Positions 1 through 40,144 of a stretch of 41,152 nucleotides of DNA are shown here, piece after piece (the stretch's first letter is position 1; every line of letters begins with the position of its first letter). The position numbers were made by a program, and so were the translations under genes. Below the pieces are notes generated by a model, which ran no database searches, was not told where the DNA came from, and was given only the letters and a program-made list of their open reading frames with translations. The DNA comes from a virus (lineage: Duplodnaviria; Heunggongvirae; Uroviricota; Caudoviricetes), in IMG/VR virus record IMGVR_UViG_2703718810_000001, positions 1-41,152 of that record; one strand, 5' to 3'.

Positions 1-440
1 ACGTAAACTTTTCCGGTTGTTGTCGATATCTCCCTATCCCTCAACCGGAAAATAATAATACTAAAGTGCTTAGCCCTGCTAATAATCACCTAATCCAAAC
101 GCCTCATTCATGTTCTGGTACAGTCGCTCAAATGTACTTCAGATGCGCGGTTCGCTGATTTCCAGGACATTGTCGTCATTCAGCGACCTGTCCCGTGTAT
201 CACGGTCCTGCGAATTCATCAAGGAATGCATTGCGGAGTGAAGTATCGAGTCACGCCATATTTCGCTATCAGGATTCTGTGTGATGGTTACATCGCCCGG
301 CCCAGGGCTGTTTAGTCATCAGCGCTTTCTGACAGTGCTGAGATTTCAACCTGTTGCAGTAAAAATGAGTAGATATAAGGCAAGTGTGCTGCCAAACCTA
401 TCTTTTACGGGGTGAAGGTAGATTTCGTTTGAAGGGTATC

Positions 441-455
441 TGGTGTCCCCTGCAG
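441..455. repeat. attL core (TGGTGTCCCCTGCAG)
   Basis: Exact 15-bp copy of the sequence at 40070-40084, which is the 3' end of argW; lies just upstream of torI. Confidence 0.7.
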
Positions 456-528
456 ACATCTACTTCAAGCAGCAGGGGATTGATTGGAATGGTGTTTTTT
501 AGATGTGAGAAATATTTTACCCGCTATT

Positions 529-729
529 TTACCCATTAGCGCGGCTTAAGAGCTTATTTTTGAATTCACAATGGTCACGATATAACCATCTTGCTCGCCC
601 GTGGATAACTTTGGCTTTTGGCAGGTCGCCGGACTTAATCCGGTCGTAGATGAAGGTTTTACCGAAGCCAGTATCAGCCATGATGAATTTCAGATCAACC
701 AGTGAATCAGGCTGTAGTTCGTGTTGCAT
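529..729 (-). CDS. torI: Excisionase / Tor inhibitor TorI (AlpA-family DNA-binding protein)
   Basis: 66-aa translation matches K-12 TorI as recalled (KplE1 excisionase); sits next to attL. Confidence 0.8.
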   Translation of the reverse strand: MQHELQPDSLVDLKFIMADTGFGKTFIYDRIKSGDLPKAKVIHGRARWLYRDHCEFKNKLLSRANG

Positions 730-853
730 GAGTGCTATCTCCGAATAGGGAATCGAACCTGCAAATCAGGCAATAAAAAACCGCATTGATGCGGCGATGG
801 TAGGTCTGGATATCTTGAGAAATGAACAGGCCTCATCGAGTGTGAGGCTGTGG

Positions 854-1225
854 TTAGTCCTTGCGTAGCTCGCTGATTCTTCTGTAAGTCTCTGGTGCTT
901 TGTTTCCGTGTATCTTCATTTCAGACTTCAACAGAGCAACGAGGGGATCCCATTCGTTGAGGATGCCTTTGAATGCCGGAACGCGCTTTGCAACCTTGTC
1001 GAATGAATCTCTGATTTCTGGAATCTGCTCGACAAGTGCAACGCATCGCCGGAAATCTGCTGCGTCATGTGGAGCGCCGAAGTGATGACCATAGATATTC
1101 TTTTTCAGTCCACATGCGATTGAGGCAAGAGTTGCGCTACTGATGCCTACATCACCAGTTGATTGCCATTTCAAAACCTTCATAGCCAAATCTGACATTT
1201 CTTGTCTCCAATAAAAAACCGCCAT
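854..1225 (-). CDS. hypothetical phage protein (123 aa)
   Basis: ORF in the leftward early operon; ATGA start/stop overlap with the upstream 55-aa ORF. Confidence 0.55.
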   Translation of the reverse strand: MAVFYWRQEMSDLAMKVLKWQSTGDVGISSATLASIACGLKKNIYGHHFGAPHDAADFRRCVALVEQIPEIRDSFDKVAKRVPAFKGILNEWDPLVALLKSEMKIHGNKAPETYRRISELRKD

Positions 1226-1392
1226 CAGGCGTCTTGGTGTTCTTTCAGTTCTTCAATTCGAATATTGGTTACGTCTGCATGCGCTATCTGCGCCCATATC
1301 ATCCAGTGGTCATAGCAGTCATTGATGTTCTCTGCTTCGATAACTCTGTTGAATGGTTCTCCATTCCATTCTCCTGTGACTCGGAAGTGCAT
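1225..1392 (-). CDS. hypothetical small protein (55 aa)
   Basis: Hand-translated ORF below the 60-aa cutoff; ATG at 1392, stop TGA at 1225-1227 overlapping the next start. Confidence 0.4.
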   Translation of the reverse strand: MHFRVTGEWNGEPFNRVIEAENINDCYDHWMIWAQIAHADVTNIRIEELKEHQDA

Positions 1393-1472
1393 TTATCATC
1401 TCCATAAAACAAAACTCGCCGTAGCGAGTTCAGATAAAAGAAATCCATCAATTGGTTAGGGTTTTTGTAATT

Positions 1473-1658
1473 CTACGAATTATGTTGTTTTTTAGCTTCA
1501 GCTTTCCATTCATCAAAGGCAGTGTCTTTGTTCATGGTGCTGATATTGATCTTACGGTCAATATCATATACACGCCACTCACCGTTAGGCCTCTCTTCGC
1601 ATCTAACTAAGTATGAATTGCCATTAATATCTATGCGTCTGTCTATTTGCATGAACAT
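1473..1658 (-). CDS. hypothetical small protein (~61 aa)
   Basis: ORF 1473..1664 begins with TTG; ATG at 1658 has AGAGGA upstream. Start uncertain. Confidence 0.45.
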   Translation of the reverse strand: MFMQIDRRIDINGNSYLVRCEERPNGEWRVYDIDRKINISTMNKDTAFDEWKAEAKKQHNS

Positions 1659-1778
1659 TTTCAATTTTCGAATCCTCTTTAATATGCATTTTTTGCTATT
1701 TCAGTAGTTTACTATTGATGAGGCGTTATTATACACACTTCATTAATGCAAGCATCTTTATGCTATGCTACTAATTTA

Positions 1779-2057
1779 TCAATTGATATTCACCTTTATC
1801 GCGTATACCTTTACCGGATTCTCACCAAAGTGCGGATGCGTTATTACCTTGATTTCATATCCGTCATACGGAACATCAATTCTGCGGCTGGAATCGTCGC
1901 GCTTCGGATATCCCTTTGTGATAATCAGGCGGTCATATTCCCGGAACATAATTCGCTTATTCCAGTAGTCATTACACAGGCGATACTCTTCCGTTTTCTC
2001 CCCGCGAATCATGGCATCGAAGTATTCACCTTTGACGGCAAGTTGCAGGTTAGCCAC
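1779..2057 (-). CDS. hypothetical phage protein (92 aa)
   Basis: GTG start preceded by AAGGAGG about 6 nt upstream; part of a tightly packed operon. Confidence 0.55.
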   Translation of the reverse strand: MANLQLAVKGEYFDAMIRGEKTEEYRLCNDYWNKRIMFREYDRLIITKGYPKRDDSSRRIDVPYDGYEIKVITHPHFGENPVKVYAIKVNIN

Positions 2058-2334
2058 GACCTTCCTCCTTTGGCTTGTGAATTTGTATCGTCATGCCGCT
2101 TTGAGTGGTGACTACAATGACAGAACCAGCCTGAAGGCTGTTAAGATTGAATGCTTCGTAAAACGAATCCAATGCCAGTGCTTTTTTATTCTTCCGGTTC
2201 CACCAACGCCATCCCTTGCTACAGGCTACACTGACAATCCACTGTCCACTCCTGTAAGCCATATAAAACCAGATGAGCAAAACCTGAAGGAAGGCTATCC
2301 AGTCAATAATCGTATATTTCGCGAAGGCGTCCAT
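2050..2334 (-). CDS. hypothetical membrane protein (94 aa)
   Basis: Hydrophobic stretch IIDWIAFLQVLLIWFYMAY; TAATG overlap with the upstream Lar-like gene. Confidence 0.5.
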   Translation of the reverse strand: MDAFAKYTIIDWIAFLQVLLIWFYMAYRSGQWIVSVACSKGWRWWNRKNKKALALDSFYEAFNLNSLQAGSVIVVTTQSGMTIQIHKPKEEGRG

Positions 2335-2630
2335 TACTTCACCTCCTGCGGAGTAGCCTTTACAAGCACTGGTGTAAATCCATCTTCATTAAGGTTATGA
2401 ATATAGACTTCTGTTCTCCTGCGCTCTTCAACGTTTAATATTGTTTCTGGATCATAAACCCATACTTTCATTCGACTATTCCATGAAGAAATCGCTTCAG
2501 ATCTAGTTCGTTTTTCTGGTCCTTGGGCACCACATTTGCATGACACATAGCGCATTTTCCCTCTGATACTGAATGAGTATCCGATGTTAAGCACAGTGGA
2601 ACCACAGAATGGGCAGCGATATAGATTCAT
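2334..2630 (-). CDS. Lar-family restriction alleviation protein (zinc ribbon)
   Basis: CPFCGS...CKCG...WN motif typical of the Lar family; ATGA overlap with the upstream gene. Confidence 0.6.
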   Translation of the reverse strand: MNLYRCPFCGSTVLNIGYSFSIRGKMRYVSCKCGAQGPEKRTRSEAISSWNSRMKVWVYDPETILNVEERRRTEVYIHNLNEDGFTPVLVKATPQEVK

Positions 2631-3160
2631 AAATCATCCACCTTAGGCGCAGCTGAGACAGCAACATTCCAGAACTCAGAAAACATATTGTATGCACCAG
2701 ATAGATTGGAAGTGGCATACCCTCCAAGCTCACTTCTAATCTGAACGGCTCTCATCATTTCCGGGGTTAACTCCTTCGGCACCATAACCCAACCATCCGG
2801 AATGACCGGAGAGTTGCCATTTATATCGAAGTTTGGCTCTGCGTCCTGAACCAGGAGGATGTAACCATTCTTGGCAGTATCAAGTTCTAACGCCTCGGTG
2901 ACGGTGCCGAAATAGCGATTACCTAAATCAGCATCACAAGTGCTTACATCAATGGAAACTTCCATACCCTCGATTAATTCTGGCAAGTTGTAAGTCTGGC
3001 TTACAGGTTCTGCACTATCAGCTTCGCGCCGCTTCTGTAGCTCTGCTGCCATTGCTCTCACGACTTCAACTGGTGCCCTTGCAGCAAACTCTATGTTGGT
3101 GATCAGCTCATTAAGATATTGCTCGCTGGGATACTGTTTCTTATTGGTAATAGTGGTCAT
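2627..3160 (-). CDS. hypothetical phage protein (177 aa)
   Basis: Long ORF with ATGA coupling at both ends. Confidence 0.6.
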   Translation of the reverse strand: MTTITNKKQYPSEQYLNELITNIEFAARAPVEVVRAMAAELQKRREADSAEPVSQTYNLPELIEGMEVSIDVSTCDADLGNRYFGTVTEALELDTAKNGYILLVQDAEPNFDINGNSPVIPDGWVMVPKELTPEMMRAVQIRSELGGYATSNLSGAYNMFSEFWNVAVSAAPKVDDL

Positions 3161-3366
3161 GTGTTAATCCTCAAAACTTTATGCCCGGGCGCAAAAGTAC
3201 GTGTTTTGTCTTTGCTTATTCGCCACCCGTCTTTACGGGCCTCTTTTGCACAACCAGACCATGACGTACCGATATACTCACCGAAGTCTGGCACTGGATA
3301 TACACCTTCCGTACACTGGCGACAATCACAATAGAGATGCATGGTGTAACTTGCGGCAATAGCCAT
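3157..3366 (-). CDS. hypothetical Cys-rich small protein (~69 aa)
   Basis: ATG at 3366 sits 1 nt after the Ea22-like stop; CDCRQC motif. ORF tool start at 3396 is probably too far upstream. Confidence 0.45.
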   Translation of the reverse strand: MAIAASYTMHLYCDCRQCTEGVYPVPDFGEYIGTSWSGCAKEARKDGWRISKDKTRTFAPGHKVLRINT

Positions 3367-3367
3367 A

Positions 3368-4396
3368 TCAGTCTCCTTTGATGCGAATACCAGCAAGCCA
3401 GTTTCTTATGCCGATATATTCAGCGTTCCTGAAACCGCTTTTTACATATATAAATGGCAAGCGAAGATTGTGACCATTGGCTGCCAGGTAGTCTTTACAA
3501 CCCTGTTCGGTGAAACAGCAGGTAACGAATTCATCAATATCTTTCACAGCAACGCGCCGCCATTTTTCTGGTGGCTCCCGAAAGTTTTCATGAAGTAGTT
3601 CGAGACGACGACTTTGGAGTTTATTGGCTTCATTGCCATCTTCATCAACCCAGACAATCCGGTCATAGTCATAATCAGCATCAACAACGATTTCGCGCTT
3701 TTGATACACACAAAACATAGGATCTGACGTTATTCGATTATCCTGTGTTCGAATATTTTCACCGATGATGCCAAACGAATCTGGTGCAGATTTTGTCTGC
3801 ATCTCTTCGATACGTTCAGCCATCGCAGCACACTCTTCAAAGTTGCTTAATGCTTTTCGCTCCCATTCGGCGCATTGTTTTTCCAGTTCTGCTATGTGCT
3901 TACTTCCATCTGCGATTACTCCCTCGTAATACTCGCGTTGTTCATTGAGTTTTGCTCTCACCTCCTCAAGCTCAACGCGCAGCCTCCCTGCCGTTAGCGC
4001 AATATCCTCGTTCTCCTGGTCGCGGCGTTTGATGTATTGCTGGTTTCTTTCCCGTTCTTCCAGAAGCGCCAGCACAATATGTGGCGTTATCAAGGACTTA
4101 AATTCGTCAACAGCTTGTTCGCCTCGCTTGTAATTCTTAATCCCACCTAAATTTTTCGCGTTCTGTGCCGCCTCACGCAGTGCCTGATAGTCAATCTCGC
4201 TCACTGGTTGCCTCCTTTGCTCGCTGATTCCACTCTGCTCTAACCTCTGAATAAAAAATCGCGCAGTCATTTCCAGGCGCTGCATATTTGCTACCAGATT
4301 GAGCGCGACACGTACCGCATCGAACGAAATAGAATCGACCGCCAGAGCCATATTCAGGGTGATCTGCTTCGCTGGCAACGTGCGCTGCGCCGCCAC
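3368..4396 (-). CDS. Ea22-like early protein (coiled-coil); start uncertain
   Basis: Long ORF with a coiled-coil central region; GTG start at 4396; 5' end overlaps the Lar-like ORF in another frame. Confidence 0.55.
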   Translation of the reverse strand: MAAQRTLPAKQITLNMALAVDSISFDAVRVALNLVANMQRLEMTARFFIQRLEQSGISEQRRQPVSEIDYQALREAAQNAKNLGGIKNYKRGEQAVDEFKSLITPHIVLALLEERERNQQYIKRRDQENEDIALTAGRLRVELEEVRAKLNEQREYYEGVIADGSKHIAELEKQCAEWERKALSNFEECAAMAERIEEMQTKSAPDSFGIIGENIRTQDNRITSDPMFCVYQKREIVVDADYDYDRIVWVDEDGNEANKLQSRRLELLHENFREPPEKWRRVAVKDIDEFVTCCFTEQGCKDYLAANGHNLRLPFIYVKSGFRNAEYIGIRNWLAGIRIKGD

Positions 4397-4424
4397 AGAA
4401 TGGACATGGTAGTAGGTTGCTCAT
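4191..4424 (-). CDS. Lar-like zinc-ribbon protein (77 aa)
   Basis: LPCPFCGG...CGTC...WNQRA motif; ATG at 4424 forms an ATGA overlap with the upstream stop. Confidence 0.5.
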   Translation of the reverse strand: MSNLLPCPFCGGAAHVASEADHPEYGSGGRFYFVRCGTCRAQSGSKYAAPGNDCAIFYSEVRAEWNQRAKEATSERD

Positions 4425-4915
4425 GAATGCACTCCCTCGTGAAGCTGTTCCGCACAATGCAGCAGGGCGTCAGTCGCCTCTTTCACCGTAACGCAGTCGC
4501 CATCGTCCAGCCCGGACACCGACGCGTGCTTAACGAACGCCGCGCAAAGGTCATCAAAAGCCTTAGCCCGGACTTCAGCCAGGAAAGCATCGGTGGCTGG
4601 GGTGTCTGATTGCATAGACTTTGCGCGATAGTCATTCCACCCTCTTGCATACATGGGATTAACTTGCACTCCATCTTTTACGCAATATGCCTGCCCTCCA
4701 CGGTTGATAACCTTGATTTCGTCCATAGCGCCAGACTTCAGCCCCGCATTCTCCGCAGCCAGCGCCGCGCATTTAGCTTCAAGTTCAGCAAATTTACGCA
4801 CCAGATATTCAGCGTTTGTTTCGTTAACCTTTAAATCTCGTGGGATGCATTTACCTTTCAGAAAACCATCCATCTCAATTAGTGTCATTTGTTTCATTTT
4901 TTTCCACTCCGCCAC
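4421..4915 (-). CDS. hypothetical phage protein (164 aa)
   Basis: ORF in the early operon; several in-frame Met near the N-terminus, start uncertain. Confidence 0.55.
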
Positions 4916-5058
4916 ATCGCATTCAGATATTTGTTGTCATTAACAGAACCGAAACTCTTTCTTTTAAGCAATTCCTCTCTCGATGGCATTGGCTTTACGC
5001 GTTGGCGAATAATCATTTCTGCCGGAAGAATGCCGGGATTGTATGCAAGTCCTCTCAT
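4894..5058 (-). CDS. hypothetical small basic protein (~54 aa)
   Basis: ATG at 5058 with GAGGAA about 7 nt upstream; longer ORF-track version overlaps neighbours. Confidence 0.35.
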
Positions 5059-5068
5059 GGAAAATTCC

Positions 5069-5365
5069 TCAGTCATTACTGATAGCGCCATAGCGTGAGC
5101 GGTAATTACGCAGGCGCGGGTCGATATATTCAGGGAAGTGGGTATATGTGGCTTTGCGGAATGGTCGGATTGATGTCTGGTAAATTCGCTCGCGTTCTTC
5201 TTTCTCTGCAAGCCATATACAATGGCGAAATTCCTTTTCCTCTTTCGTTTCCTGCGGTAGCGACATTATCCGATCGTAGTTTTTTCTGAATTTATCCAGC
5301 ACCTCCGATACGGAATTGCCGGAACAGCGGCGCGCGTCGTCCGCACCATACAGAGGCGCTGGCAT
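5069..5365 (-). CDS. hypothetical phage protein (98 aa)
   Basis: ATG at 5365 with AGGA upstream. Confidence 0.55.
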
Positions 5366-5388
5366 AATGGAATCCTTATGTTGCTACT

Positions 5389-5772
5389 TTAGAAGGGAAT
5401 TGAATCGTCGTATTCAGGATGATTTTGATGATTGCTACTTAGCTGCTGTTGGCTGTTTCCTGAAGTTGCAAATCCAATCTTTGCATTCAGTAATTCAAGA
5501 GTGATTGATTGACCATTTTGCCCCTGATAAACATCAACCCTGATGTTTTCTCCGGTAATTTCTACAATGCCACCTTCAACAAGAACACTACGGTAGTAAT
5601 CCGCTTGCGCTCCCGGCTTGGCAAATACAACGGCGCTGTAGTTTGTCCATTCTTTCTTTTTTGTCTGGCGATCGTAATACTGAACGCCAGCACGGATGTT
5701 GAATCCGATATTTTCCCCGGTCTGAAACTCTCTTGCGGGCTTGTTTAGTCTTACAGTAATCGAATGTGCCAT
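5389..5772 (-). CDS. ssb: phage single-stranded DNA-binding protein (SSB-like)
   Basis: C-terminus ends in DDSIPF, the SSB acidic tail; ATG at 5772 overlaps the erf stop (TAATG). Confidence 0.65.
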   Translation of the reverse strand: MAHSITVRLNKPAREFQTGENIGFNIRAGVQYYDRQTKKKEWTNYSAVVFAKPGAQADYYRSVLVEGGIVEITGENIRVDVYQGQNGQSITLELLNAKIGFATSGNSQQQLSSNHQNHPEYDDSIPF

Positions 5773-6377
5773 TAAGCAGCAGCTCCTTCTAATTCGTCTC
5801 GTCTGATGTTGTAAACGTCCTGCGCTTTGTGCTGCTCCGGTGTGCCTTCGAGCATCTTCCACGCTTTGGCGAACGCCTGTTTAAGCTCTTCTACGGTGTT
5901 TTTCTGCATTGCTGCGTCAGTGAATGCTTTTAGAACCTGTTCAGGTGTAGGTGATGGTTTTGATTGCTTTGCTGCTGCGTTCTGCTGATGTTTATGCTCG
6001 TCGGTATCTGCATCTTTCGCATCATCAATGCCGAATAAACCATTGAGGCAATACTTGCGTGCATAAGAGCTTGTAGCTCCCGTAACTTGTGCAGAATCCA
6101 TTCCTTTCTTGCTTTCTTCCTCTCGTGCAAGAGCGGTTGCCGTATGACTGTTTTCGCCATCGGTAATAGTTGCCGTGGCTTTCACGTAATACCGATCACC
6201 AATCAACACAACTTCATCGCTGATTGATAAAAACAGGCCATTCAGTAGCGGCTTAACGCCTTCAAGAATGTCTTCGCAGCTTCTGTATTTATATTTACCG
6301 AATGAGTTGTACTGATTCTTTGGCGCGTTCAGATTCTCCTGAATAGCTGCCAGTCTTGCGTAAAATTCTTTGCTCAT
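5772..6377 (-). CDS. erf: ERF-family single-strand annealing protein
   Basis: Translation from MSKEFYARL matches P22 Erf as recalled; ATG at 6377, ORF-track start at 6407 is TTG. Confidence 0.75.
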   Translation of the reverse strand: MSKEFYARLAAIQENLNAPKNQYNSFGKYKYRSCEDILEGVKPLLNGLFLSISDEVVLIGDRYYVKATATITDGENSHTATALAREEESKKGMDSAQVTGATSSYARKYCLNGLFGIDDAKDADTDEHKHQQNAAAKQSKPSPTPEQVLKAFTDAAMQKNTVEELKQAFAKAWKMLEGTPEQHKAQDVYNIRRDELEGAAA

Positions 6378-6478
6378 ATGTTTGTTCTCAGAATGGACAT
6401 TCCCCAAGGAAATAACGCTGATTTAATACTTCGACTCGGGACAAATTAAGGCATACCCGCATTCCTTCGCGGTCGCCA

Positions 6479-6592
6479 TTATGGCGATACCAGAGAGCTT
6501 TCTGCGTGTACATGCGTCTCTGTAACTTGCTCTCCTTCACTGTGGTTGCAAGTGACATGAATATCTCCTTCGTTACCGATTAATTCTTTCAT
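6479..6592 (-). CDS. possible small ORF (37 aa) between kil-like and erf
   Basis: Hand-translated; no convincing RBS; sits where P22 has arf. Weak. Confidence 0.2.
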   Translation of the reverse strand: MKELIGNEGDIHVTCNHSEGEQVTETHVHAESSLVSP

Positions 6593-6632
6593 CTGACGAA
6601 TGAATTCTTCGTCTGACCAGTTATCTGTAAAA

Positions 6633-6785
6633 CTCATTTCCTGCGATACCACGGAAGGTTGATAGCTGATTTCATCGCTTTATTTGCTTCAAGCCACATT
6701 TTTGAATCACCAATAAATCTGGCTATTACTGCTTTGTTTTGTGCCGCACGAAGCATCTGGTGATTAATGGCTATTTCATTGCGCA
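6633..6785 (-). CDS. kil: Kil-like small protein (50 aa)
   Basis: Hand-translated MRNEIAINHQMLRAAQNKAVIARFIGDSKMWLEANKAMKSAINLPWYRRK; FIGD.KM motif resembles lambda Kil as recalled; located just after cIII. Confidence 0.4.
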
Positions 6786-6905
6786 TAACGCCTCCAGTTG
6801 TTTCTTTGCTGCTCTGATTAATTGTTTAACTCGGCGTGATAATTCAGATTCGTGCGGGTAGAAAGCGGACATGACGCCGCTACCCGCGAGCTGAAAGTGC
6901 ATCAT
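6771..6905 (-). CDS. cIII: CIII-like protein (FtsH inhibitor)
   Basis: MMHFQLAGSGVMSAFYPHESELSRRVKQLIRAAKKQL resembles lambda CIII; ATG at 6905 with AAGGAG 7 nt upstream. Confidence 0.6.
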   Translation of the reverse strand: MMHFQLAGSGVMSAFYPHESELSRRVKQLIRAAKKQLEALCAMK

Positions 6906-7131
6906 GGGTAACTCCTTATATTTGATTGCATAACGAAAACGCCTCGAGTGAAGCGTTATTGGTATGCATATAAAAAGGCCCTCACACTGGAGGGCAAAGA
7001 AGATTTCCAATAATCAGAACAAGTCGGCTCCTGTTTAGTTACGAGCGACATTGCTCCGTGTATTCACTCGTTGGAATGAATACACAGTGCAGTGTTTATT
7101 CTGTTGTTTATGCCAAAAATAAAGGCCACCA

Positions 7132-7383
7132 TCAGGCAGCCTTGTTGTAAATGTTGCAGGTATCAAGTAAGTAATTAGATGGAGCGCCATAAATTATGAA
7201 TTCATCGTTTGTCGGGTCCATCTCCATCTCTTGGCCTATTGCCATTCTTGCGTCAGTGTCATCAGAGGCGAAGCATAAAACAGCCCACGCACCCATTGTT
7301 TTAAAAAGAACTGCAATTGGCTGTGGTTTTACTGAATTTGCGTTAGCGCGAAAATCACAAATCGCACTTTCATGAAACTCCAT
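7132..7383 (-). CDS. hypothetical early protein (83 aa)
   Basis: ATG at 7383 with GAGGTG upstream. Confidence 0.55.
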   Translation of the reverse strand: MEFHESAICDFRANANSVKPQPIAVLFKTMGAWAVLCFASDDTDARMAIGQEMEMDPTNDEFIIYGAPSNYLLDTCNIYNKAA

Positions 7384-7437
7384 ATCTCACCTCAAATAAG
7401 TGGTTTGCTGCGAAAGTAAATACGCTTAAGTTACCTG

Positions 7438-7575
7438 TTATTTATCCCACCAAGTTCCGTATCTATCTATCCAGTTACACCAATCATCGACACTCCATTT
7501 TGTTGTGTCGCATTTTGGCAATTGACATGAATATCTACCTTCTTTGTAAAGTCGGCGTTTGACTTTCTTGAGCAT
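7438..7575 (-). CDS. hypothetical Cys-rich small protein (45 aa)
   Basis: ATG at 7575 with GAGGT 5 nt upstream, 8 nt after the N stop. Confidence 0.4.
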   Translation of the reverse strand: MLKKVKRRLYKEGRYSCQLPKCDTTKWSVDDWCNWIDRYGTWWDK

Positions 7576-7582
7576 GACTACC

Positions 7583-7888
7583 TCAATCGTAATAAGCTGG
7601 AATTGATTTTCCGCGTTGTTTCTGGCGACCAACACAAGTCACCCCCATTTCACTGCGTGGCTTGCGGTAGTAAATACGGTTCTGTTTACGCTCGACTTCT
7701 TCTGCCTTCTTGCAGCGAAGGCTTCCGAGTGATGCTGCTTTATCTGCTCTGACGCAACCAGAGAGCTTTAGCGCAATTTTTCGCGCCAGTCGCTGCTCTT
7801 GCATTGCCTGTTCACGTTGAGCCTGTCTGCGTGCTCTGCGGCGATTTCTGGCGTTATCGTCAGCCAGATATGTAATGACTACTGTCAT
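7583..7888 (-). CDS. N: N-like transcription antitermination protein
   Basis: Arg-rich N-terminus (NARNRRRARRQAQ) and C-terminus ...VTCVGRQKQRGKSIP resembling lambda N; first gene downstream of pL. Confidence 0.7.
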   Translation of the reverse strand: MTVVITYLADDNARNRRRARRQAQREQAMQEQRLARKIALKLSGCVRADKAASLGSLRCKKAEEVERKQNRIYYRKPRSEMGVTCVGRQKQRGKSIPAYYD

Positions 7889-7943
7889 GTTGACCTCCGA
7901 TGAAACAACTTTGGAATTTTTTTTATTACAAAGTGGTTTCCTT

Positions 7944-7973
7944 CCCCGCCAATTAGACGGGGATGGAAGAGCA
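7944..7973 (-). promoter_or_regulatory. nutL candidate (boxA GCTCTTCC plus boxB hairpin)
   Basis: On the leftward transcript: TGCTCTTCC followed by CCCCGTC-TAATT-GGCGGGG (7-bp stem, 5-nt loop), about 60 nt upstream of N. Confidence 0.5.
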
Positions 7974-8377
7974 TTTATGAGCCTTCATGGACTCTGCTCG
8001 ATCAGTTCTATTTAATTAATCTCTCAACTGAATGTAAGTATTCACATAAATCCTCCTACCTCTTGTGCAGCTTTCTTGAATATGGTGGCGGCTGCATAAC
8101 GCCTATGGAATTGACTTTGGCGATTGGATGGCCGGTGCTGAACTCCGGCTTACTGGTTAGAGCGCCCGCACTACCAGTGACGCTGTCTTGAGGCGCAGAT
8201 TGGTTACTGCTTGCCATGAGCGCTGTTTATACATTGGTCGAGCATCAGCCTGCTCATTCATCCAATCCCAAAGCCAACTACTCTTTGGTTCCCGCATTTC
8301 GGCGGGACAATCCCATCAATGTTAAAGAGCCTGCCAATCTGTTCCGTTTGGCTACCAGCGTCCTGCTGATGGCTTAA

Positions 8378-8450
8378 ATTTAAGATCTCTTTAATTAATG
8401 GTCAAGAGTATTTTTGAAGAAAACTTAAATTTTCTTTCGTAACTTAAGTT
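8378..8450. promoter_or_regulatory. OL/pL region with P22-type operator sites
   Basis: ATTTAAGATCTCTTTAAT at 8378-8395 matches the OR site pattern ATTTAAGTGTTCTTTAAT; further TTAAG/CTTAA half-sites follow. Confidence 0.5.
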
Positions 8451-8472
8451 TTGCTTTGATTTTTAAAGGAAA

Positions 8473-8496
8473 TAAAAAAAAGGGGCGAATGCCCCC
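8473..8496 (-). terminator. rho-independent terminator after the repressor gene
   Basis: Directly after the c2 stop on the minus strand: GGGGC-ATTC-GCCCC followed by a run of 8 T. Confidence 0.6.
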
Positions 8497-9147
8497 TTAT
8501 GGAAGGTTTGCTAGTTTTGCATCGACAACTACGCCGATGATTTTGCAGTTTCCGTTGATCTCGATCATCGGATATTGTGGGTTAAGTGGTTTTAGAAACT
8601 TCCTGCCTGCATCAATAACTAACTTCTTGAAAGTTGCCTCGTTTTCTCCTTCGAGCTTTGCAACTACCAGTTTCCCGTTACGCGGCTCTACTTCAGGATC
8701 GACGAGTATTATCATTCCTTCAGGGATACTGAGACCGGCCGGAGCCGTCATTGAGTCTCCCTTCACGTCCAACCAAAACGAATCTTCTGAACAGTCTACG
8801 GTTGTATCGTACCAGTTATCTATTGCACGCTTATGATATGGTTCTACAGCTTCCATCCAGCATCCTGCGCTCACCCAGCTAATCAGAGGGTATGACCCTC
8901 TTGGATCATGCCTACTGTGATAGGCAATGTTTGAAAGACTTTCCTCTCCTTTCATCAGATAGTCAGGGGAACACTTCAACGCATTAGCCAGGGCGAGAAG
9001 ATTCTCTCCATTTGGCTCTGTCTCAGAGCGTTCCCACTGAGATATGGCAACATTAGACACGCCGACCATCTTTCCAAGTGCGGCCTGTCTGATCTTGAGT
9101 TCTTTTCTCCGAGCGCGAATGCGCTCTCCCATCAATTGAGTTTTCAT
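8497..9147 (-). CDS. c2: P22 c2-type prophage repressor (HTH plus LexA-like peptidase domain)
   Basis: 216-aa translation closely matches P22 c2 as recalled; divergent from cro. Confidence 0.85.
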   Translation of the reverse strand: MKTQLMGERIRARRKELKIRQAALGKMVGVSNVAISQWERSETEPNGENLLALANALKCSPDYLMKGEESLSNIAYHSRHDPRGSYPLISWVSAGCWMEAVEPYHKRAIDNWYDTTVDCSEDSFWLDVKGDSMTAPAGLSIPEGMIILVDPEVEPRNGKLVVAKLEGENEATFKKLVIDAGRKFLKPLNPQYPMIEINGNCKIIGVVVDAKLANLP

Positions 9148-40069: not shown

Positions 40070-40084
40070 TGGTGTCCCCTGCAG
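40070..40084. repeat. attR core (TGGTGTCCCCTGCAG), 3' end of argW
   Basis: Exact copy of 441-455. Confidence 0.7.
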
Positions 40085-40144
40085 GAATCGAACCTGCAAT
40101 TAGCCCTTAGGAGGGGCTCGTTATATCCATTTAACTAAGAGGAC
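40070..40144 (-). tRNA. argW: tRNA-Arg (anticodon CCU)
   Basis: 75-nt cloverleaf ending ...GGGGACACCA with anticodon loop CUCCUAA; matches argW as recalled. Confidence 0.85.

Follow-up and report, generated by a model that had tools for sequence, protein, structure and literature searches.

A block of thirteen small leftward genes in an argW prophage: a probable 'ea' segment of a lambdoid early-left operon with two Lar-family zinc ribbons

What is encoded by the dense run of small leftward genes between the recombination genes and the excisionase gene torI of a lambdoid prophage, and does it amount to a set of anti-defence functions? This question is raised by positions 854-5365 of the IMG/VR virus record IMGVR_UViG_2703718810_000001. 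The whole stretch of 41,152 nucleotides (nt) that was analysed is referred to here as the window. The initial annotation described the block as about 15 tightly packed genes, including two Lar-type zinc ribbons and one Ea22-like protein, and pointed to anti-restriction and anti-defence functions. The findings in this work indicate that the block is very probably the distal, dispensable 'ea' segment of a PL early-left operon, the counterpart of the lambda exo-xis region, in an HK620/Sf6/P22-like prophage at argW. The block is already known: it is one more permutation of known 'ea' cassettes and is present verbatim in a public genome.

The block consists of 13 co-directional genes on the minus strand, with a coding density of 94.9%. 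The starts of these genes were re-derived from in-frame start codons and upstream Shine-Dalgarno motifs, and the junctions were taken straight from the sequence. With lengths in amino acids (aa) and with the two zinc ribbons designated Lar#1 and Lar#2, the transcription order is abc2, DUF2737, 158-aa, Lar#2, Ea22-like, 69-aa, 177-aa, Lar#1, DUF4752, 92-aa, 63-aa, 55-aa, and 114-aa. All 13 products match PHROG families (E 8e-13 to 8e-58). Positions 400-6500 of the window are 100% identical to contig LOIK01000001.1 of the E. coli assembly GCA_001607605.1 (locus L010), and the gene caller on that contig independently gave the same model except for Lar#1. The family matches and the independent gene call argue that these are real genes and not chance open reading frames (ORFs).

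The count of about 15 genes was too high because of over-long ORFs such as 3368-4396 and 4894-5211. The former (342 aa) has its true start at GTG 4204 behind AAGGAGG, the latter (105 aa) is replaced by the 54-aa DUF2737 gene, and another ORF of 123 aa is replaced by a gene of 114 aa. The leftward orientation stands as it was described. All genes from erf and the ssb-like gene (5389-6377) to torI (529-729) are on the minus strand, which carries every plausible gene from 529 to about 8400. The tight packing by ATGA and TAATG overlaps is retained for 1779-5058 only, and does not extend to the last three genes, whose junctions are spacers of 114, 80, and 26 nt. The block exhibits seven overlapping junctions in total. 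These are four ATGA overlaps (4897, 4424, 3160, and 2630), one TAATG junction at 2334 between the DUF4752 gene and Lar#1, and two longer overlaps (14 nt at 4204 and 8 nt at 2057). A further junction is a 1-nt spacer at 3367.

The genes upstream of the block on the same strand are the ssb-like gene, erf, two small recombination-associated ORFs, kil, cIII, two unknowns, an N-like antiterminator gene, and the repressor gene. Sigma-70-like sites are depleted in 400-7000, where three were found against 12 +/- 3 in shuffles, and this depletion fits one long antiterminated transcript. The GC skew is uniformly negative over most of the block. At the sequence level, the gene content, the few promoters, and the coupling agree with a lambdoid N-antiterminated PL early-left operon. 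The early-left operon of P22-like phages has been reported to consist of genes that are mostly of unknown function and non-essential (PMC8022706).

The prophage itself is delimited by its argW module. The window carries tRNA-Arg(CCT) argW and an integrase gene at 38.7-40.1 kb. The final 15 nt of argW are repeated at 441-455, which marks attR as in K-12 pawZ at the right end of CPS-53. The TorI protein is 100% identical to the K-12-type torI product in E. coli MS6192 and to the HF4s excisionase, and in its virion half the window is similar to IME10 and P22. Together, argW with its integrase, the argW 3' fragment, torI, and the virion half identify the window as a prophage of the HK620/Sf6/P22 type, about 39.6 kb long, at argW. 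It has been reported that KplE1, HK620, and Sf6 have the argW recombination module in common (PMC3509656).

After infection or induction, transcription would start at PL, beside the repressor gene. The N-like antiterminator would modify this transcription, which would run leftward through cIII, kil, erf, ssb, and abc2. The transcript would go on through the 13 genes, reading through the internal terminator-like hairpins on its way, and would reach the excisionase gene torI. Translational coupling would extend from the DUF2737 gene to the 92-aa gene. The products would be host-takeover and decision-modulating accessories with neither replication nor virion functions. The block evolves via gene-sized and domain-sized cassette exchange among lambdoid phages.

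Several points weigh against this account. The single transcript and the read-through steps would be carried over from homology to lambda and P22. Real spacers separate the three distal genes, with one terminator-like hairpin among them, and these genes may therefore be expressed differently. The AT-rich cassette of the 63-aa gene looks moron-like. The homologues behind the role proposed below for the Ea22-like protein share just the N-terminal and coiled-coil part with lambda Ea22.

Table 1. Genes of the block in transcription order, followed by boundary, upstream, and terminator-like features of the window. Family cut-offs are given in brackets after the scores.
Feature	Position	Strand	Remarks
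abc2, anti-RecBCD protein 2, 98 aa, first gene of block	5069-5365	-	PF11043 203.6 bits, E 4e-61, residues 1-98
DUF2737 small basic protein, 54 aa, HK620 hkaI / P22 orf56 type	4894-5058	-	PF10930 98 bits (> 25), phrog_1117 2.5e-38
158-aa EaE/HkaH-like protein, coiled-coil N-terminal part	4421-4897	-	phrog_614 5.7e-50
Lar#2, four-Cys zinc ribbon, 77 aa, CPFCG ... CGTC ... WNQR	4191-4424	-	PF14354 38.0 bits (> 28.6), E 2e-9
Ea22-like protein, phage-P27 'V3' type, 278 aa	3368-4204	-	PF13935 85.8 bits (cut-off 27), E 5e-24, profile 1-139 complete
69-aa protein, 4 Cys	3157-3366	-	phrog_926 5.7e-36; 87% identical to PA28 gp13
177-aa acidic tripartite mosaic protein, isoelectric point (pI) 4.28	2627-3160	-	5193 relatives
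Lar#1, zinc ribbon, 98 aa, CPFCG ... CKC ... WNSR	2334-2630	-	PF14354 35.8 bits (> 28.6), TIGR03655 58.7 bits (> 39.6)
DUF4752 small protein, 94 aa	2050-2334	-	PF15944 120.9 bits (> 27)
92-aa protein, RefSeq 'ASCH domain-containing'	1779-2057	-	phrog_625 7e-50; 751 clusters at 50% identity
63-aa protein	1473-1664	-	phrog_16329 8.5e-49; spacers of 114 and 80 nt on either side
55-aa acidic protein, widespread in lambdoid phages	1225-1392	-	phrog_676 3e-39
114-aa predicted all-helical protein adjoining excisionase	854-1198	-	
torI, excisionase (recombination directionality factor) of argW recombination module	529-729	-	left-hand boundary of block
ssb-like gene, 127 aa	5389-5772	-	phrog_44 at 2.9e-27; right-hand boundary of block
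erf	5772-6377	-	PF04404 at 151 bits, phrog_155 at 2e-57; right-hand boundary of block
N-like antiterminator	7583-7888	-	
S24 repressor	8497-9147	-	
Terminator-like hairpin just downstream of 63-aa gene	1412-1431	-	consensus scan, 8-bp stem then T-run; pattern match only
Two terminator-like hairpins between last ea gene and torI	780-848	-	

The established counter-defence function within the block is, as judged from family membership, that of Abc2. This protein matches phrog_656 at 2e-56 and the PDB entry 8b1t_A, 'Anti-RecBCD protein 2', at 1.8e-55 (residues 1-98 against 1-97). P22 Abc2 binds RecBCD, and the complex has been described (PMC9836394). With the function demonstrated for the P22 homologue and the membership established here, Abc2 would bind RecC and re-programme RecBCD. 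The gene is an E. coli-phage allele, with 66% identity to that of ST104 and 96-99% identity to those of HK022, HF4s, and 720R6.

The two CPFCG proteins belong to the Lar family, as the initial annotation had proposed, since both are above the PF14354 cut-off. Lar#2 is under the NCBIfam cut-off (TIGR03655 29.5 bits against 39.6) and is therefore a Lar-family member at the Pfam level only. In the alignment, Lar#1 exhibits the Cys pairs C6/C9 and C31/C33 (C-x-C) followed by WNSR. Lar#2 exhibits the Cys pairs C7/C10 and C36/C39 (CxxC) followed by WNQR. The identity to Rac Lar/RalR is 34% for Lar#1 and 26% for Lar#2, and the identity between them is 29%; they are distant paralogues. PDB sequence searches with Lar#1 and Lar#2 gave no match. 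Their most likely binding partner would be DNA or a host enzyme that acts on nucleic acids.

Lar#1 is extended at its C-terminus by 45 aa. Only 12 clusters conserve this extension; they come from E. coli and Enterobacter and are named 'Lar family'. The gene is intact in the window and in six of the seven related loci fetched. One related prophage has a nonsense codon, E62*, that leaves the zinc ribbon intact (locus L011, 6531-6827). On the identical contig (locus L010, 6690-6827) the gene caller took an internal start that gives 45 aa, and the MS6192 copy is listed as a pseudogene in RefSeq. The annotation of Lar#1 is inconsistent across records.

The Ea22-like protein was also recognised correctly from the start, with a Pfam domain (PF13935) that begins exactly at the GTG 4204 start. 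A short N-terminus leads into a coiled coil, which is followed by a C-terminal domain of about 140 aa. This is the three-part architecture with a swappable C-terminal domain, located between the recombination genes and xis, and it has been described together with a tetramer for lambda and P27 Ea22, where P27 is the 'V3' prototype (PMC10834534). The protein is 78% identical overall to P27 Ea22, with only six substitutions in residues 84-278 and a different N-terminus. It is 95% identical to HK022 gp35 over residues 81-278, and the N-terminal parts differ. No PDB sequence match beyond noise was found for this protein at E <= 1, including the solved lambda Ea22 C-terminal domain (nuclear magnetic resonance fold). 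Its C-terminal domain is assigned to the P27 type and not to the lambda type.

Deletion of ea22 in lambda and Phi24B has been reported to cause a shorter latent period, a larger burst, lower host survival, and altered lysogenisation (PMC7093339). Where Ea22 homologues have been tested, they influence the balance between lysis and lysogeny and not restriction (PMC7093339, PMC10834534). By comparison with the lambda and Phi24B homologues, the P27-type Ea22 would be an oligomeric coiled-coil protein that biases toward lysogeny. The pro-lysogenic effect and the tetramer would extend to the present protein only through its near-identity to P27 over residues 84-278.

The remaining genes were described initially as being without recognisable motifs. 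This does not hold, as Abc2, DUF2737, and DUF4752 are identified and the 158-aa and 177-aa proteins share modules of a domain-shuffling Ea22/EaE/DUF551 assemblage. The DUF2737 gene starts at ATG 5058 behind GAGGAA, and its 54-aa product is also called on the identical contig (locus L010). The 158-aa gene is joined to it by ATGA coupling. The 158-aa protein exhibits partial matches to phrog_368/492, which are common to Ea22-like proteins, and is 55-74% identical to ST104 orf9 and to the 'EaE' proteins of HF4s and 720R6. It exhibits no Pfam or PDB sequence match.

In the 177-aa protein, a near-invariant core (about residues 50-124) lies between an N-module and a C-module that both vary. Across its relatives, the core is preceded by a short N-module or by an Ea22 N-terminus with coiled coil. 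The core is followed by one of three C-modules joined at a PDGW motif, namely the one present here, DUF551, or a DnaJ-like CxxCxGxG zinc finger. The family thus composed reads as a clear case of domain-level cassette exchange. An AlphaFold model of the 177-aa protein from a 47-sequence alignment was discarded (predicted local distance difference test score 39). PDB sequence searches with the 177-aa and 92-aa proteins gave no match, and the 69-aa protein has no Pfam match. The DUF4752 protein exhibits an N-terminal hydrophobic helix (Kyte-Doolittle maximum 1.78 at residues 8-26).

The ASCH domain (PF04266) that RefSeq assigns to the 92-aa protein was not reproduced. The Pfam score is 14.4 bits against a cut-off of 21.2 and covers residues 6-28 only. 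Among 55 diverse relatives none matches Pfam, the family profile finds nothing in the PDB, and hhalign against E. coli YqfB gives a probability of 0.45%. The 92-aa protein shares with ASCH only an N-terminal motif of 16-23 residues (YFD-I--G-K--E-R).

The reality of Lar#2 had to be established separately, as the Ea22 ORF can be lengthened in an open alternative frame, about 200 nt of which coincide with the Lar#2 ORF. Lar#2 has its own ribosome-binding site (GGGAG) and an ATGA-coupled start at 4424, and the gene caller also reported it on the identical contig. Homologues that are 48-50% identical are annotated separately as Lar-like in 101 Vibrio phages. An underpowered codon-position test (four nt differences) had two to three changes in the overlap. 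Read in the extension frame, all of them are non-synonymous, against two synonymous and zero to one non-synonymous for Lar#2. The evidence favours Lar#2 as a real gene.

The reference records treat this locus differently. The Lar#2 ORF is 97-99% identical and unannotated in ST104 (locus L007, 2764-2994), HF4s (locus L004, 4141-4371), HK106, and UAB_Phi20, where it is covered by over-extended Ea22/EaD and EaE/orf9 calls. The alternative-frame extension of Ea22 matches phrog_4132 (E 2e-21), which suggests that the mis-call has spread into family databases.

Four other explanations of the block were weighed. The omission of Lar#2 from those four records and the phrog_4132 match could be taken as signs that some small ORFs, with Lar#2 as the candidate, are chance ORFs or annotation artefacts. 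This is extremely improbable and is refuted for practical purposes by the Pfam Lar match of Lar#2, its translation signals, its Vibrio phage homologues, the Ea22 domain that starts exactly at GTG 4204, and the PHROG matches of all 13 genes. It is also very unlikely that the two Lar-family genes are RalR-type DNase toxins, either as type I toxin-antitoxin genes or as effectors that degrade host DNA. The founder of the family, RalR (Rac Lar), is a non-specific Mg/Ca-dependent DNase toxin (PMC4041452), and the K-12 annotation as an endodeoxyribonuclease toxin agrees. The nonsense allele of Lar#1 in one related prophage (locus L011) would also suit a toxin. However, RalR toxicity is lowered by changes at positions 14, 37, 39, 49, 51, and 52, and the K52Q mutant is inactive (PMC4041452). 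Among these six positions, N51 alone is retained in both Lar#1 and Lar#2, with the alignment of 37 and 39 being less certain. In Lar#1 and Lar#2, respectively, C14 is replaced by S and G, R49 by S and E, and K52 by S and Q, so that Lar#2 has the residue of the inactive mutant. The antitoxin RNA RalA (Rfam RF02694) was not found in positions 1-9000 of the window at E <= 1, where the Rfam scan as a whole gave no match, and the Rac control was found at 225 bits. As the toxicity residues are mostly replaced and RalA is absent, a RalR-like toxin role is unlikely for these genes. Both genes are, furthermore, translationally coupled within an early operon and are not free-standing toxin-antitoxin cassettes, and Lar#1 is intact in most related loci.

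The block could alternatively be an anti-defence island in which the Lar-like proteins alleviate type I restriction in place of ral and several of the unknown ORFs inhibit other defences, and this is doubtful. Abc2 is a bona fide RecBCD modulator, both CPFCG proteins exceed the Pfam Lar threshold and Lar#1 the NCBIfam threshold as well, the 177-aa protein is acidic (pI 4.3), and the region is hyper-mosaic like arms-race loci. A ral homologue was not detected between the N-like gene and cIII in the upstream part of the operon that was scanned. In a functional screen, counter-defence was scored for Ral, Abc1, and further accessory genes of the early region (PMC12373910). Against these points, signature peptides of six block proteins do not occur in the supplementary files of that screen. 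Apart from Abc2 and the Lar-likes, no gene matches an anti-defence-annotated family in Pfam, PHROGs, or NCBIfam. PADLOC hidden Markov models at E <= 0.01 found no family for ten proteins scanned, a set that excluded Lar#2, DUF2737, and Abc2. These family searches, which had been proposed as a check, thus gave the unknown ORFs no positive link to anti-defence. The Lar name refers to restriction alleviation, in which type I (EcoKI) restriction is lowered and modification is raised (King & Murray, 1995, as far as it is cited in PMC4041452), whereas RalR has been reported not to inhibit restriction-modification (Guo et al., 2014, PMC4041452), and the identity to this founder is just 26-34%. The Ea22 proteins that were tested act on lysogeny, and the location of the block is a positional prior and not evidence. 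Lar#1 and Lar#2 may have an anti-restriction role, which is made more plausible by the fact that no ral was found upstream. That the two are non-toxic inhibitors of two different host nucleases or restriction systems and that, separately, the 114-aa protein is an unrecognised host-takeover factor is an improbable combination. Most of the small proteins might instead tune the lysis-lysogeny decision and the induction efficiency, as the exo-xis genes of lambda and Shiga toxin (Stx) phages do, which is entertained only tentatively. The block occupies the place that corresponds to exo-xis. The Ea22-like protein is of the P27 type, the variant studied biochemically by the groups that showed the pro-lysogenic effect of lambda and Phi24B ea22 (PMC7093339, PMC10834534). 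Other exo-xis ORFs have been reported to affect lysogenisation and induction (PMC3824215). However, no gene of the lambda exo-xis cassette (orf60a, orf61, orf63, orf73, and ea8.5) is recognised here, and the reported ea22 effects are modest. This explanation is also compatible with the others and not exclusive.

The anti-defence setting proposed initially thus stands in part. The block is an early-left accessory region with Abc2, and its ORFs are not all housekeeping genes. The 'Lar-like' label and the position do not establish anti-restriction, and Ea22 points to lysogeny. Overall, the initial observation is partly confirmed and its interpretation is partly supported.

The reading of the block as the distal 'ea' segment of the PL operon is further illustrated by its distribution. 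At least 80% coverage of the region was found in no phage record and in no complete E. coli genome, and the best phage record reaches 54%. Matches to 854-5365 occur in 628 phage records, and the wider query 400-6500 is matched by 4813 of 5426 E. coli genomes (about 89%). In blastn and a per-gene identity matrix, 1213-4071 is 99-99.7% identical in prophages that have RecT or Rad52 modules instead of Erf, and Lar#2 travels with ST104 and HF4s. The same layout is found elsewhere as abc2-hkaI-hkaH-ead in ST104 and HK620 and as 'ea' genes in HF4s, 720R6, and HK022. On contig LOIK01000001.1 the prophage abuts the csc sucrose-utilisation genes cscB, cscK, and cscA.

Two differences in gene content were noted upstream. 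The slot of abc1 in P22 and ST104 is filled here by the ssb-like gene. Two conserved unknowns (7132-7383 and 7438-7635) lie between the N-like gene and cIII, in place of ral.

The distal genes are arranged more loosely. The 63-aa gene sits alone in an AT-rich cassette (34-37% GC) of about 338 bp, about 1447-1784. This cassette is absent from HK022, HF4s, and 720R6, where the alignments stop at 1446 and resume at 1785, and is present in some otherwise collinear prophages; it looks like a moron. The 55-aa protein is 91-96% identical in 720R6, HF4s, HK022, and PA28. The fold of the 114-aa protein is predicted with confidence to be helical and has no solved relative, and proteins related to it in structure extend to an actinobacterial phage.

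Some relatives of the 114-aa protein in public databases (P0135, P0137, P0149, P0167, and P0170) have its C-terminal part fused in frame to N-terminal Erf, Ea22, or PF04447, and one has an internal deletion. The fusions with PF04447, Erf, and Ea22 were rejected as homology evidence because they were judged to be in-frame deletion recombinants. Through such deletions, some prophages seem to have lost the ea region wholly or in part.

A repeat of argW was also observed next to torI. The 3'-terminal 30 nt of argW (40070-40099) recur split at the left prophage end, at 441-455 and at 749-764. The part at 749-764 is a 16-nt segment of the argW T-arm, GGAATCGAACCTGCAA, on the other side of torI from 441-455. 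The same 16-mer is found just upstream of torI in K-12 CPS-53, phage HF4s, and other argW prophages, and is therefore a conserved feature of the torI/attR module. The repeat at 749-764 was considered as the prophage end, with torI outside, and was rejected because the true 15-nt fragment is at 441-455 and the 16-mer lies upstream of K-12 torI.

The block carries little weight as a discovery, as its sequence is public and about 89% of complete E. coli genomes contain pieces of it, as do hundreds of phage records. It combines catalogued gene families in a reshuffled form and so is ordinary. The analysis gives a corrected gene model for a typical 'ea' block and a short list of small, early, conserved unknowns for anti-defence or lysogeny screens. 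It also indicates that several reference phage records conceal a real Lar-family gene beneath Ea22/EaD calls that reach too far. The label 'Lar-like restriction alleviation protein' is functionally weak, as the founder's activity is contested and the toxicity-linked residues are not conserved.

Among known systems, P22 Abc2 (PDB 8b1t/8b1u) is matched over its full length by a protein of the same length at the same position after the recombinase genes, with no notable difference. Lar#1 and Lar#2 resemble Rac Lar/RalR in the N-terminal CPFCG with a second Cys pair, the C-terminal W-N-x-R, and the family membership by hidden Markov model. They also resemble it in the location near recombination genes in the early-left region of a lambdoid prophage. 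They differ from it in the low identity (34% and 26%), the C-x-C pair and 45-aa extension of Lar#1, and the score of Lar#2 under the NCBIfam cut-off. They differ further in the mostly replaced toxicity residues, the RalA small RNA that was not found, and the presence of two paralogues in one operon. The argW module of KplE1/CPS-53, HK620, and Sf6 (IntS/TorI) is reproduced with argW beside int at one end and torI with the 15-nt fragment at the other. Here, however, the prophage between its ends is P22-like, apparently complete, and about 39.6 kb long, in contrast to the K-12 remnant of 10 kb.

The exo-xis region of lambda and Stx phages is comparable in its location between the recombination genes and xis, its early expression, and its Ea22-family protein. 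The Stx phages PA28 and P27 also have DUF4752, the 69-aa gene, and part of the 177-aa gene in common with the block. Unlike lambda exo-xis, the block exhibits none of the cassette genes from orf60a to ea8.5 in Pfam and PHROG scans. Its Ea22 C-terminal domain differs from the solved lambda domain, and its recombinase is Erf and not Exo/Bet.

The block differs from the 'ea' regions of P22-like phages (P22 eaA-eaI/ead, HK620 hkaG-hkaH-hkaI, ST104 orf6-orf10, HF4s, and phage L) in its combination of genes, which occurs in no phage record, in the ssb-like gene that replaces abc1, and in the absence of a detected ral. Its cassette of Lar#1, the 177-aa gene, and the 69-aa gene is matched, among the phage records examined, only and partly in Stx phage PA28. 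It resembles these 'ea' regions in the abc2-to-xis position, the strand, and the tight packing. The genes in common are abc2, DUF2737 (hkaI / P22 orf56), the EaE/HkaH-like gene, the ead/Ea22-like gene, DUF4752, the 'ASCH'-named gene, and Lar#2, with an identity to individual relatives of 40% to 99%.

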